64,000 nucleotides of DNA from a virus (IMGVR_UViG_2974586258_000001:32001-96000), one strand, 5' to 3'; counted from the first letter of the stretch, positions 6,466 to 51,102 are shown. A program made the numbers and translations. Notes: generated by a model not told the origin, from the sequence alone.

Positions 6466-7185
6466 ATGACTAAATTTTCAGGTACAATTGAAAAACTTTA
6501 TGTAAAATATGTTGATAAAGTTAAAAAATATAGCGTTAGTATTGTGAATTCTAATAACTTCTATGGACTGGGTTTGCACAATGATAAATTTGTAAAAGTT
6601 GGCGATGTTGTTCTGAAAGAAGGTATGCAAGTTGAGTTTGAATACGCAGGGCAATTCAAAAATATTGATATGAATACCTTTAAAATTATTCAACAAGAAG
6701 TGCCGAAAGAAGTTAAGAAAGCAAAAAATGACAAAGACTTAGCAATTCGTCTTGGGAATTCTATTACAATCGCAACACACTTGACTAAAAGCAAACTGGA
6801 TATTGTTGCTATTGCTAAACAAGTCATGCCAATGGTCGATGAACTACGTGATAAACTAGCAACCAAACATACAACCATGGACACATATAGTCTGGGAGCA
6901 CGTCTGGGCCAAGCAGCTATAATTGCTGCTCAATACACAGCAAGCATTGATGATTTTATTGGTTTTGCTGAAGAACTGTTTGAAGAGATTTGTCAAGCTG
7001 AAGAAGATCTAAAGAATCCAAAAAAAGTGAAGAAAGAAGAAACTAATAGTGTCCAAAATAATCTTACACAAAGCCAGCATAATGTTGCAACACCTGTCTA
7101 TAATGAGCCGTCGGTTTATTGGGATAACGATATTCCGTTTGCCCCGATTGGTTTGCAATACCCTCAACTATTGTGGAGCATGTAA
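6466..7185 (+). CDS. Putative OB-fold/SSB-like protein with a host SSB-tail-like motif
   Basis: Beta-rich N-terminus; YNEPSVYWDNDIPF near the C-terminus. Confidence 0.45.
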   Translation: MTKFSGTIEKLYVKYVDKVKKYSVSIVNSNNFYGLGLHNDKFVKVGDVVLKEGMQVEFEYAGQFKNIDMNTFKIIQQEVPKEVKKAKNDKDLAIRLGNSITIATHLTKSKLDIVAIAKQVMPMVDELRDKLATKHTTMDTYSLGARLGQAAIIAAQYTASIDDFIGFAEELFEEICQAEEDLKNPKKVKKEETNSVQNNLTQSQHNVATPVYNEPSVYWDNDIPFAPIGLQYPQLLWSM

Positions 7186-36267: not shown

Positions 36268-38109
36268 TTAAAAGTAGCGACTTTTATTTAAACCTGATAT
36301 CATTGTAGGTGCATTGATTGTTGGCATTGTTACTGCTGAAACACTCATTGTTTTAGCAAGATAGGAGAAAACTGAAGCACAAGCATCAGGCCAGTCATCT
36401 TTTCTGTCTGCCGTGGACCTTTCTCCATCGAAACTTTCAAGCTCTTTATAGAAAGCTGCAAGTGTTGCAGGTTCAAAAGTATCTTCAACAATTGATACTA
36501 ACCCATTCTGGCAAGCAGAACTGAACGCCTCAAACCGTTTTAGTTTTGATTTATTAGATGGATTGGGGTCTTCTTTTACAATAAAACCCTCATTAGTAAA
36601 CATTTTAGCCATCTCGTTAAACGCAAACGCACCAGCTTGTCCTGGATCTTTAGGTAAAACCACAATAGTATCTGAGCCATCATGTTTGGCCTGTAACAAC
36701 ATCAAAGTATCACGAACACCGGGGCGTTTTCTAAACCTACCGTTCTGTCTAGTTAATTCATCAAGAGTCTCTTGAATATAATCCCCAACAATAATATAAG
36801 TATCTTGATTTGTTTTTAGCATTTTGATACTTGCAGTATAGTCAGGATATCTATTCTTATCAGATGGTTCAGCCGAAGCTAAGTCCCATCCTCGTGCTTC
36901 TGTACAGTTCAATGGTACTTTGTCTAGTTTATTTAACCAACTTCGCTGGAAATAGTTAGAACCTTCTGGACGAGCATACCAGTTACCGTCCAATAGTCTG
37001 GCGCGGTTAATTGGTGACTGAGCTTTCAGTGCAGACAAATACTTTGGGTTAGATTTTATTAGTGCTGGGTTATCGAAGATAGTTCCGCTGATAAAAGTAA
37101 ATGACATAGGGGGAATATAAATTCTTTCACCATCATTTTCTTGATAACAAATATCAGGGTACGCTTCTGCTAACTCTTCCTCTGTATTAGCAAAAATAGG
37201 TTTATCATCAACAATAACGAAGTACCTAATAACTCCGTCTTTACTCTGGTCTGGATAGCCTTCTGGATCCAAATACCACTCAACGAACGATAACACCCAA
37301 CTGTCCGGTGATGGATTACAAGTACCCATACAGAAACTATCGCATTCTGCTTCAGAACGGAGACGACCTATTAGATATAAAAATTGAGATTGTGAGAAAT
37401 GTGTTAATTCGTCGAAACCAACAAAAGAATATTGTACTTTTATGTTCGGAAAGGCTCGCTAGACCTATCCCGCATCACTTATGTTTATCAACATTAGCTG
37501 CTGCTCTATGTCTCCATAGAAGTTCAGACTATATCATCCACAACAATATGTTGCGGCCTACCGTTTCGAACACCATTAGCTTGTGTCCTACACCGCTACA
37601 TTCATCACGGCTAGTCGTTGGGCATTTAGAAACAAATGTTTCATTTAGCACAGGATTGTCCTTAACTTAATACTAGGAGTTTCCCTGTTTAGGTAGGTTT
37701 GCTACACTAATCACTTAATGTAGGGGCTACAATTTAACCCTTGATGGTTGGCCTCGGCTGTATCTTCGTGCTCTAAGTGGGTGTATTTAAGGTTCCCACC
37801 ACCTGTTCCTTCGAAAATAATCTCCATGTCTTTTTCACGGATTCTCGGATTAAGTGGTCTGAAAAGTTTCTTGCTTTCTGTAAACAATCCTCCGGCACCT
37901 TTAAGGGGGCCAGTTGTTCTTCGAAACATTACACCTTCAAAATTAGGGTCTTGATATGCGTGTTTTAATGCTTTTATTAACAGAAGTCTCGACTTGCCAC
38001 TACCTGCGGCACCGCCGTATATCATTACATCTACTTTTGTATCAAAAGCTTTTCGTTGTTTTCCCTCTTGAGGGGCTAAATTAACAACATTATTTTGTTT
38101 AGTTGCCAA
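36268..38109 (-). CDS. terL: Terminase large subunit, spliced complement(join(36268..37436,37737..38109)), about 513 aa
   Basis: Walker A YGGAAGSGKS. Splicing restores HQG|LQYSFVGFDELTHF (Walker B). TCNP coupling motif; RGWDLA and DDWPDA nuclease motifs. Confidence 0.95.
37437..37736 (-). mobile_element. ORF-less group I intron (IA2-like, 300 nt) in terL
   Basis: 5' exon GGGU pairs with IGS GCCC; P10 AUUGUA/UACAAU; R CCCAACGACUA; S GAUAUAGUCUGAA; terminal G at 37437. Splicing restores the frame. Confidence 0.93.
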
Positions 38110-41977: not shown

Positions 41978-42382
41978 CTACTCTCCAATCTTACCTAGTT
42001 CATTAAGAGTATCAACGCACACATCATTTGTCAACCCTGCTTTTGAATTTATATACTCTTCCAGATTTTGATTTGCAATGTCAGCTTTTTGTTTTTCTTT
42101 ATCAAGCAACTCTTTCAGTGATTCTTGTTTTTCTTTTGATTTGTCGGACAACTCTTGTAGTCTAATATTCTGTTCATTTAATTTAATCTGAAGTTGTTCA
42201 ATAGAAGCATTGCTAACTTTAAGGCGTTCTTCAACCTGAACATTCTTCTGCTCTGCAAGAGCTAGTTCTGATTCAAGGAGACTGGTACTGACATTTAGAT
42301 AAAATATTGTGGCTATCAAGATTGCAATCAAAGATTGAACCCAGTATTTTTTAATAAATTCAAGTACAAGTTTTAGTTCCAT
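41978..42382 (-). CDS. i-spanin (Rz-like)
   Basis: Single N-terminal TM segment, long coiled coil, C-terminal Cys. Confidence 0.75.
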   Translation of the reverse strand: MELKLVLEFIKKYWVQSLIAILIATIFYLNVSTSLLESELALAEQKNVQVEERLKVSNASIEQLQIKLNEQNIRLQELSDKSKEKQESLKELLDKEKQKADIANQNLEEYINSKAGLTNDVCVDTLNELGKIGE

Positions 42383-42457
42383 ATGCTTTCCTTGTGTTGT
42401 GGGTAAAATAAAAGCCCCGAATCACGAGGAAACGAGGCTTGTTGGTTAAATTTGAAT

Positions 42458-42547
42458 TGGTAGCCCTGTTCGGTAACGATCCGAAGTAACCCACTTATCT
42501 GGTGTACGAGTTTATAAATCTCGGTACTTTCCTTAAGCTACAGGGCC
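42458..42547 (-). tRNA. Atypical tRNA with anticodon UAU (Ile) and long variable arm, 90 nt
   Basis: Acceptor GGCCCTG/CAGGGCT-A-CCA; anticodon loop TTTATAA; T stem TTCGG/CCGAA with unusual loop ATCGTTA. Confidence 0.8.
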
Positions 42548-42557
42548 ATTAAATTAA

Positions 42558-42884
42558 TATAAAAACAAAGGATGGTAGGCCATCACCCCGCAACAAAGAC
42601 AGGAATCAAAAGATTATGTGTCTACGCCCTAGTTGTGTTATATCCGCATGATTTCTCAGAGGGAGATATAACAAATGATAATAATTCACTTAGACGGATC
42701 ACTCTTCCTTGTCTCTTGGCTTTCAGTGATCGATTAAAGAGACAGCAGTCTACATTTTATGCCGATAATAGATATGCAACCTTTCTTTATTCTTGTAAGG
42801 CTCAAGTTTACCAGTCTCTCTTTTATCTTGCAGAGACCAACAAGAACCTATTCTTAGCAAGGTCATAGGATTTTAAAACCTATA
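42558..42884 (-). ncRNA. Putative ~320-nt structured RNA with an H-type pseudoknot
   Basis: Own promoter, dense nested helices, pseudoknot and terminal hairpin with U-tail; no credible ORF on this strand. Confidence 0.65.
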
Positions 42885-42889
42885 TGTTT

Positions 42890-42918
42890 ATATTATCAAA
42901 ATTATCTTGAAATTTCAA
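42890..42918 (-). promoter_or_regulatory. Conserved phage promoter (TTGAAA-17-TAATAT) driving the ncRNA/tRNA
   Basis: Member of the 9-copy motif. Confidence 0.72.
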
Positions 42919-42954
42919 GTACAAAATTAAATATCAATACAAATACCCTACATA

Positions 42955-43377
42955 TTACCACCAAAGATTATTGTAATGTTTTGCAAACAAATCTAAACCT
43001 TCTCGTTTCTTTTTATCCCAATCTTCCATATCTTTACGATATTTATCGTACCCTTCTTGATTTGAAACTAAACAAAAACCCTCTGACTTATCAGATGACA
43101 ACTCAAATCCAATTTTGTATGATGAAACGTCTGGTTCATTTTTATCATCAAATGCAAAAATCATCTTATCCAAGATTTCAAACCATTTATCTGATTGTGG
43201 TCCATCATCGTAATTATCATCAAAAATAGGAACACCGTAAGCCTTTCCGTTAATATCCCGCTCTTTCAGTGTATCCCGAAACTTTACAAGTCCAGCAAGG
43301 ATAATCGTGGAAAGTGTGTTATCAAGAGAGTAAGTATCTTTATAACTAAAAACTGGCTTACCTTTGTGGATACGCAT
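42955..43377 (-). CDS. Conserved hypothetical phage protein
   Basis: WFEILDKMIFAF...GLDLFAKHYNNLW motif. Confidence 0.7.
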   Translation of the reverse strand: MRIHKGKPVFSYKDTYSLDNTLSTIILAGLVKFRDTLKERDINGKAYGVPIFDDNYDDGPQSDKWFEILDKMIFAFDDKNEPDVSSYKIGFELSSDKSEGFCLVSNQEGYDKYRKDMEDWDKKKREGLDLFAKHYNNLWW

Positions 43378-51027: not shown

Positions 51028-51102
51028 TGGTTCGAGTGTGGTGAATCGAACACCAGAATTTTCCGCCCCAAACGGAACGACATACCACTTGCCTACACTC
51101 GG
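51028..51102 (-). tRNA. tRNA-Pro(UGG) with C1:A72 mismatch
   Basis: CCGAGTG/CACTCGA-A-CCA; anticodon arm TTCCG-TTTGGGG-CGGAA; T arm TGGTG-TTCGATT-CACCA. Confidence 0.92.

Follow-up and report, generated by a model that had tools for sequence, protein, structure and literature searches.

A putative modular non-coding transcription unit with a candidate pseudoknot RNA upstream of a tRNA gene in Plateaulakevirus-like Aeromonas phages

Small RNAs whose function is not known have long been familiar from the tRNA gene clusters of phage genomes, and RNA-based anti-defence has begun to emerge as a topic of phage biology. Here we analyze the region 42558-42884 (minus strand) that precedes a tRNA gene in a 64,000-nt stretch of virus DNA (IMGVR_UViG_2974586258_000001:32001-96000; hereafter, the window, from the first nucleotide of which positions are counted), which comes from a 122,963-bp virus record carrying direct terminal repeats. 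Several described systems are relevant for comparison. The tRNA gene cluster of phage T4 encodes small stable RNAs (rnaC and rnaD, or 'species 1 and 2'), the function of which is unknown; GOLLD and ROOL are phage RNAs that are found near tRNAs and are larger than the region considered here; and the put RNAs of HK022 are stem-loop RNAs that act in antitermination. GOLLD and ROOL are presented as large RNAs in bioRxiv 10.1101/2024.12.08.627333. PeSL cassettes mediate modular shuffling in T4-type phages, according to PMC2839356 and PMC4122927, and PMC3475682 and PMC5086642 deal with the type III antitoxin RNA ToxI and with phage 'pseudo-ToxI' mimics. A preliminary description of the region under study, generated by a model from the sequence alone, proposed a single, highly structured RNA of a new class.

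In our reading, which is probable though far from certain, a Plateaulakevirus-like Aeromonas phage carries a dedicated non-coding transcription unit with modular cargo, and 42558-42884 is the untranslated portion that fills its 5′ two-thirds. The region combines recognizable sequence motifs, non-coding status, a modular distribution among relatives, conservation above that of the adjacent gene, and two unrelated alleles that each have the potential to form a pseudoknot. The description that fits it best is a narrowly distributed, new candidate variant of the phage tRNA-operon-associated small RNAs.

From these features we infer transcription, processing and any function of the unit. It would run from a promoter (42918-42890) through a constant leader, denoted S1, and a variable cargo to a terminator (42440-42405); in this phage, the cargo would comprise modules S2, S3 and S5 and one tRNA, yielding a primary transcript of ~475 nt. 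Host RNA polymerase would initiate at the sigma-70-type promoter, with the start predicted near 42884 from spacing only. On the model of phage tRNA clusters, the precursor would be cut by host tRNA-maturation enzymes, RNase P at the 5′ end of the tRNA (42547) and endonucleases in the spacers, which would release the tRNA together with at least one small structured RNA. The pseudoknot module (42744-42697) would be the likeliest functional RNA, possibly a stable protein-binding or decoy RNA, and the alternative allele of this module, S3′, would confer another specificity. The cargo has been reshuffled among relatives, probably via recombination in a clade that is reported to abound in homing endonucleases. 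The placement is that of T4 rnaC and rnaD, namely, a non-coding segment in the same transcription unit as a phage tRNA, with promoter, tRNA and terminator on one strand and no conserved open reading frame (ORF), for which release by tRNA-processing enzymes is expected. Compared by description only, the two systems differ in that the T4 RNAs are tRNA-sized, whereas the unit described here consists of a constant leader, swappable modules and a pseudoknot.

The nearest named relatives of the virus belong to the Aeromonas phage genus Plateaulakevirus (TS9, DL, phiA009, phiA019, phiA047 and PAc), with PhAER-3 and PhAER-4 farther off. We compared nine distinct loci: that of the window, those of TS9 (L001), phiA009 (L002), phiA047 (L003), PAc (L004) and PhAER-4 (L007), the IMG/VR contig L005, the metagenome contig L009, and L012. 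The figures for DL and phiA019 matched those for TS9 and phiA009, PhAER-3 is 100% identical to PhAER-4 over 376 nt, and metagenome contig L010 is identical to L005 over 4693 nt; these were not counted as separate loci. Searches of phage databases retrieved 6 records with the window query and 5 with the PhAER-4 version, scans of viral contigs found no further homologue besides L005, and a metagenome scan contributed L009 and L010. A genome scan yielded the true homologue L012 along with L011, which was rejected as a chance match, its alignment being limited to the search pattern itself. The L012 locus (6644-7100) carries the promoter, S1, tRNAs, terminator and downstream ORF of the Aeromonas-phage locus in a contig filed under a Candidatus Saccharibacteria metagenome-assembled genome; the contig is probably of phage origin and was misassigned in binning. 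The 363-nt query covering the unit is single-copy in the 122,963-bp genome, and no paralogues were detected in the phage's own genome either for S1-S5 or for S3′, S4 and tRNA-Thr (best E 0.34). As the preliminary description had it, the region is unannotated: the annotation under the match is 'none' in all 6 GenBank records of relatives. The literature retrieved with Plateaulakevirus and the phage names contains no description of this RNA, although supplements might list promoters or RNAs, and PMC11874395 has 0 occurrences of 'non-coding', 'ncRNA' or 'small RNA'.

Judged by its relatives, the stretch is a chain of modules found separately in other loci, not one large RNA. The promoter, the leader segment S1a and the terminator form a constant frame in all nine loci. 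The previously proposed promoter was found by a promoter scan (9 of 12 hexamer matches, upstream TG present) and is kept throughout, its hexamers being aligned in alignments A1 (5 loci) and A3 (8 loci) and also seen in L012. The terminator is 31-34 of 34 nt identical in the 7 relatives compared, and its form across loci is AAGCCUCG...C(G/A)GGGCUUUUAUUUU, with a stem variation from U-G to U-A. Between these fixed ends, the content varies. The inner hairpin of the leader, S1b, is cleanly deleted in PhAER-4, between CUUG direct repeats. The pseudoknot module S3 is present in the window, TS9, phiA009 and L005 and is replaced in phiA047 and PhAER-4 by S3′, an unrelated module with the same flanks. 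The hairpin module S4 is absent from the window and forms an extra insert in TS9 and phiA009; the tRNA-proximal spacer S5 is found in the window, TS9, phiA009 and phiA047 and is missing from L005, PAc, L009, L012 and PhAER-4. L005 has the promoter, S1-S4 and the terminator without any tRNA, and in PAc, L009 and L012, S1 is followed directly by tRNAs. The tRNA cargo itself differs among the loci (Thr, Met, Arg and the tRNA with anticodon UAU), and some carry small ORFs. In PhAER-4, an 85-nt insert between promoter and S1 (L007 1770-1850) contains a 23-codon ORF with a strong ribosome-binding site. Two tRNA remnants lie at joints: in L009, a tRNA-Met-like copy whose 5′ acceptor strand has been replaced (1180-1252; Rfam 23.6 bits, sub-threshold) and a tRNA-Thr with an internal deletion at a recombination joint in L012 (6770-6830).

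Among 24 sequencing runs listed, 20 contain part of the stretch, none of them more than 0.25 of its words. The four runs examined (X15, X16, X3 and X1) all consist of assembled contigs, and metagenome contigs from them exhibit varied module combinations, with extra joints at 42547, 42693 and 42777-42813; gaps in cover at 42570-42760 in the RNA-library contigs carry no evidential weight. In phiA047, the upstream ORF is replaced by a homing-endonuclease-like, 335-aa protein (L003 439-1446) that combines CapR (E 2e-43), a treble-clef zinc finger and T5orf172, and T5orf172 genes are abundant in Plateaulakeviruses, according to bioRxiv 10.1101/2023.03.23.533998. Because of this neighbour and this abundance in the clade, frequent endonuclease-linked recombination is a plausible origin of the mosaic. 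The arrangement resembles PeSL cassettes in that a conserved promoter and a stem-loop terminator surround content that varies between close relatives. However, PeSLs, as characterized in the two articles named above, are short composite motifs with many copies per genome, whereas S1 is a single-copy, predicted transcribed leader of ~75 nt, and the cargo consists of RNA modules and tRNAs, not ORFs.

The best-supported part of the stretch is the candidate H-type pseudoknot in S3, which probably stands modestly above chance. Both stems are 100% paired in the four S3-bearing loci. A blind search for the best interleaved two-helix energy, with the module bounded by conserved flanks and 400 shuffles per locus, recovered exactly the pseudoknot of the preliminary description, with energies of -17.8 kcal/mol in the window and TS9 and -20.1 in phiA009 and L005; these scores were reached by 1, 2, 5 and 2 of the 400 shuffles in the window, TS9, phiA009 and L005, respectively. 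For the unrelated S3′, the best interleaved pair is GGUUGC/GCAACC with GUGGAUCU/AGAUACCAC (-16.3), a score that 16 and 4 of 400 shuffles attained. With core boundaries picked by hand, the shuffle figures were similar. That two unrelated sequences at the same site share this interleaved topology argues more strongly than anything else for its being under selection. Furthermore, stem 1 contains a compensatory pair, U-A in the window and TS9 and C-G in phiA009 and L005, and the other two substitutions in S3 fall at loop positions. An 11-nt complementarity (10 of 11 positions) exists on the minus strand between 42817-42827, which falls in the S1b loop and 3′ arm, and 42732-42742 in the 5′ arm of stem 1; it is not kept in phiA009 and L005, and because the compensatory change breaks it, the pseudoknot stem is favoured over this alternative pairing. 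The H-type pseudoknot thus gained comparative and statistical support, although the covariation control (see below) is not significant.

S3 is 96-99% identical to its counterparts in TS9, phiA009 and L005 (74, 72 and 73 of 75 nt), S1b is identical at 26-28 of 28 positions, and S5 at 99-103 of 105-106 (TS9, phiA009 and phiA047). By comparison, the downstream ORF is 85-90% identical, with 81-83% at third codon positions (TS9 and phiA009), and only 12%, 1.5% and 0% of its 75-nt windows are as conserved as S3; the upstream ORF is ~62% identical to those of phiA009 and PAc. The identity of S3 could result either from selection on the RNA or from recent exchange of the module.

The fold of the stretch as a whole is ordinary. 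The 333-nt sequence folds at -78.7 kcal/mol, whereas its shuffles average -73.2 (z -1.18), and 12 of 100 shuffles do as well as the sequence itself. The value of z is similar, at -1.06, for the opposite strand, -1.14 for the L005 homologue and -0.42 for S1-S3 (42693-42884); the three modules taken one by one have z values of -1.91, +0.21 and, for S5, -1.65. Exact Watson-Crick stems of at least 7 bp number 5 versus a mean of 2.2 in 2000 dinucleotide shuffles (fraction with at least as many, 0.067). By both measures, the impression that almost the whole stretch can pair does not exceed chance expectation. The helix arms listed in the preliminary description are all present on the minus strand where it placed them, except that nucleotide 42840 was counted in two helices, and a repeat finder independently recovered the 9-bp hairpin 42673-42665/42644-42636, stem 2 of the pseudoknot and the GUUCUUGU/ACAAGAAU pairing.

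The individual helices differ widely in their conservation. The first hairpin, AUAGG/CCUAU, the 5′ arm of which begins at the predicted transcription start, is intact in 4 of the nine loci, has one mismatch in 2 and is broken in 3. Of the 6 S2-bearing loci, 5 can form the outer helix GACCUU/AAGGUU, provided that the register may shift by 1 nt, and TS9 cannot; the 3 loci that lack S2 have no way of forming it. A competing structure is a local S1a hairpin, GA(A/C)C(C/U)U/AGGUUC (42864-42859 with 42849-42844), which is fully paired in 8 loci and has 1 mismatch in the window. The helix formed by GUUCUUGU (42847-42840) and ACAAGAAU (42796-42789) is fully paired in the 5 S2-bearing loci that retain the inner hairpin; PhAER-4, which has lost the inner hairpin, forms 7 of the 8 pairs and keeps a GUUCUUG/UAAGAAU hairpin. 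The inner hairpin S1b has 100% of its cells paired, with only one-sided G-U/A-U changes, is unique in the window and is matched in 0 of 100 shuffles. Part of the imperfect hairpin at 42745-42777 is removed by a 3-nt deletion in the other three S3-bearing loci (helix 5, 86% of cells paired). The terminal GC hairpin with a U-tail noticed earlier does exist (42584-42571), but its stem has just 5 bp, its conservation is poor (the stem is mismatched midway in TS9, and phiA009 has a weaker U tract), and the tRNA starts 24 nt past the stem, so that it would at best be a leaky terminator.

These observations bear directly on the single, discrete RNA (42884-42558, with its own terminator) of a new large class akin to GOLLD and ROOL that the preliminary description put forward. 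All of its helices exist, no Rfam family matches it, the weak hairpin at 42584-42571 resembles a terminator, and TS9 and phiA009 carry the same modules in the same order, plus the S4 insert. Nevertheless, we regard it as very unlikely, given the unremarkable fold energies of the whole and of S1-S3, the independence of the modules (S1 in 9, S2 in 6, and S3 and S5 each in 4 of the nine loci), the lack of any module-joining helix other than the 11-nt complementarity that phiA009 and L005 break, and a terminal hairpin of 5 bp, mismatched in TS9, just before a tRNA that requires read-through. The unit shares with GOLLD and ROOL its non-coding nature and the proximity to tRNAs but is much smaller, has an ordinary fold energy, and is built of independent modules instead of a multi-domain fold. 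Even less probable, to the point of being hard to entertain, is a small protein translated from the region, be it from the sense 38-aa ORF (42866-42750), a 5-codon mini-ORF or the antisense 98-aa ORF (42572-42868). These ORFs exist, the AUG at 42866 is invariant in all nine loci, and a 3-nt indel that distinguishes the window from the other loci stays in frame. However, the sense ORF survives only in the window, TS9 and PAc (where it is fused to tRNA sequence), being stopped after 5 codons by a 1-nt indel in phiA009, phiA047, L005, L009, PhAER-4 and L012; the differences between the window and TS9 are nearly all non-synonymous; and there is no Shine-Dalgarno sequence at the usual distance. The antisense ORF, which had been singled out beforehand as a potential counter-indication to an RNA, is fragmented in every relative; in TS9, phiA009 and L005, the pieces measure 36-75 aa and lie in other frames. 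By comparison of these reading frames, the stretch is non-coding.

Three further possibilities concern what, if anything, the RNA does. An unlikely but still weighty one is that there is no RNA function beyond promoter, tRNA and terminator, so that the modules are spacer DNA, the helices are due to chance, and the similarity comes from recent recombination or from DNA-level sites, such as an operator, a homing-endonuclease target or recombination anchors like those of promoter-terminator cassettes. The ordinary fold energies and the mosaic with its many joints, including the endonuclease-like neighbour in phiA047, are compatible with this possibility, and several other observations weigh likewise against the unit being a functional RNA. 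The covariation on the four S3-bearing loci is not significant, with 76 of 500 column shuffles reaching the measure, and the compensatory pair is a single evolutionary event common to phiA009 and L005. The interleaved helix pair is present in 53 of 2000 shuffles of the whole RNA, and the pseudoknot scores are only moderately rare: among 597 random 95-nt phage windows, 4.2% reach -16.3, 2.9% reach -17.8 and 1.0% reach -20.1. Minimum free energy folding and RNAalifold yield other, mutually exclusive pairings (AGGUUC with GAGCCU; AGAC with GUCU), so that any secondary structure outside the pseudoknot and the inner hairpin is tentative. The nine loci, from the collections searched, are all close relatives, and their high identity could be due to recent lateral exchange rather than to selection on the RNA. 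Transcription is predicted only, the RNA-library contigs being assemblies that, by their nature, would not reveal transcription, ends or strand, and a protein-binding or decoy role of S3 is favoured with low confidence. What argues for RNA function over mere spacer is that interleaved helices occur in each of two unrelated alleles at one site, that substitutions in S3 are compensatory or in loops, that nearly all of the adjacent ORF is less conserved than S3 and S1b, and that L005 retains promoter, S1-S4 and terminator without a tRNA, which is hard to explain if the tRNA alone mattered. A cis-acting role of S1 in the nascent transcript, as a 5′ stabiliser or a processive antitermination signal that would allow polymerase to read through the internal hairpin and final terminator to the genes beyond, with the later modules as passengers, appears rather improbable. 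S1 follows the promoter directly in the nine loci whatever comes next; by description, this resembles the HK022 put arrangement, a stem-loop RNA directly past a promoter that could act in cis on polymerase. Moreover, the unit is untranslated and therefore exposed to termination, and only 22 nt separate the end of the final terminator from the start codon of the ORF that follows (41978-42382), which leaves no room for a promoter, so that this ORF needs either terminator read-through or a promoter inside the non-coding unit. Conversely, PhAER-4 tolerates the 85-nt insert between promoter and S1 as well as the loss of the inner hairpin, and Rfam reveals no similarity to a curated antitermination RNA.

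An extension of the modular-unit reading, speculative and of low probability, would make S3 and S3′ alleles of a phage pseudoknot RNA directed at an RNA-binding protein of host defence, such as a ribonuclease toxin, which the RNA would inhibit or decoy; a specificity arms race would then account for the allele swap, and S1 would ensure high, termination-resistant early expression. If so, the locus would be an RNA-only anti-defence cassette carried in a tRNA operon. ToxI and its mimics are similar in that a phage-borne, pseudoknot-forming non-coding RNA could be a decoy for a host protein, with alleles that would fit a specificity arms race. However, ToxI RNAs consist of tandem repeats cut by the toxin, whereas the unit analyzed here has no Rfam match and no adjacent toxin gene, and contains neither tandem repeats (0 at a score of at least 30, including the ~35-nt tandem repeats expected of a type III antitoxin) nor direct-repeat families (0).

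Comparison with known families is in line with novelty, in agreement with the preliminary description. Using Rfam 15, the only match at the gathering score in the whole window is Intron_gpI at 37504-37746, and a search of 42300-43100 at E<=10 returned just the tRNA and CRISPR-DR34 (18.4 bits, E 1.3, gathering 35), so that Intron_gpI has no match there even at this lenient threshold and the region was rightly set apart from group I introns. It was likewise rightly set apart from tmRNA, given that ARAGORN predicts only two tRNAs, and no tmRNA, in the window. In the six related loci searched at E<=1, Rfam identified tRNAs and two sub-threshold Plastid-ycf2 matches antisense to tRNAs. The weak CRISPR-DR34 match corresponds to a 9-bp hairpin with a 20-nt loop (42636-42673, minus strand) and is probably due to chance; a CRISPR-repeat mimic or RNA anti-CRISPR is not indicated by this match below the gathering score, host repeats not being among the sequences compared.

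The general importance of the locus is limited because its distribution is narrow (nine loci in one phage clade). Within that clade, it is a compact test case, with a constant leader and terminator, exchangeable RNA modules between them, and two unrelated sequences that share a pseudoknot topology, and the cultured phages TS9, phiA009, phiA047, PAc and PhAER-4, with their different module combinations, amount to a set of natural deletions and swaps. Should the pseudoknot RNA prove to accumulate and to bind a host factor, the regulatory or decoy RNAs of phages would gain a new family; otherwise, the unit would be a recombination-scrambled tRNA leader.

The features of the locus are listed in Table 1. 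The stretch lies in a 572-nt intergenic gap flanked by minus-strand genes.

Table 1. Predicted features of the unit and its neighbours (window coordinates)
Feature	Position	Strand	Remarks
Upstream ORF, 140 aa	42955-43377	-	PHROG, function not known
Promoter, sigma-70-type	42890-42918	-	-35 TTGAAA 42918-42913; 17-nt spacer; TG-extended -10 TAATAT 42895-42890
S1a, constant 5′ leader, AAAAUCCUAUGA...GGUUCUUG	42840-42874	-	9/9 loci
S1b, inner hairpin, UGGUCUCU / AGAGACUG	42811-42840	-	8/9 loci; conserved 12-nt loop
S2, closing segment	42776-42810	-	6/9 loci; with ACAAGAAU 42796-42789 and AAGGUU 42783-42778
Imperfect hairpin, GCA-UCUA-UUAU / AUAA-UAGA-UGC	42745-42777	-	5′ side of S3
Candidate H-type pseudoknot	42697-42744	-	core of S3
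Pseudoknot stem 1, UGUCUCUU / AAGAGACA	42744-42737 with 42717-42710	-	
Pseudoknot stem 2, GAUCACU / AGUGAUC	42731-42725 with 42703-42697	-	
S5, tRNA-proximal spacer	42558-42692	-	4/9 loci
S5 9-bp hairpin, UGUUAUAUC / GAUAUAACA	42673-42665 with 42644-42636	-	also from repeat finder
S5 stem-loop, AGACA / UGUCU	42623-42597	-	
S5 weak terminator-like hairpin, GAUGG / CCAUC with U tract	42584-42571	-	
tRNA, anticodon UAU, long variable arm, 90 nt	42458-42547	-	ARAGORN; Rfam tRNA 34.9 bits, gathering 29
Intrinsic terminator, AAGCCUCG...CGGGGCUUUUAUUUU	42405-42440	-	closes the unit
Downstream ORF, 134 aa	41978-42382	-	weak Rz-like spanin match, E 3e-5

In the tRNA of the unit, an A-A mismatch closes the anticodon stem. 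The tRNA(UAU) is found also in phiA009, phiA047 and L012, and the corresponding site in TS9 is occupied by a tRNA-Met(CAU) that shares the first bases. The other tRNA of the window, tRNA-Pro (51028-51102), has its own promoter and only a ~15-nt leader, and sharing of the leader S1 was rejected for it on that account. A replication origin at the locus was also considered and rejected, given that the cumulative GC skew tracks gene direction and has its turning point near 54 kb instead of 42.7 kb. The Intron_gpI match at 37504-37746 (minus strand) is full-length (85.3 bits, E 2.7e-20). Past the terminator, TS9 (L001 2335-2910, 191 aa) and phiA047 (L003 2190-2480, 96 aa, shortened by a frameshift) encode an extra ORF that weakly resembles terminase large subunits in their N-terminal, P-loop portion (PHROG E about 1e-6); it is followed by a second copy of the sequence from the terminator to the ribosome-binding site.

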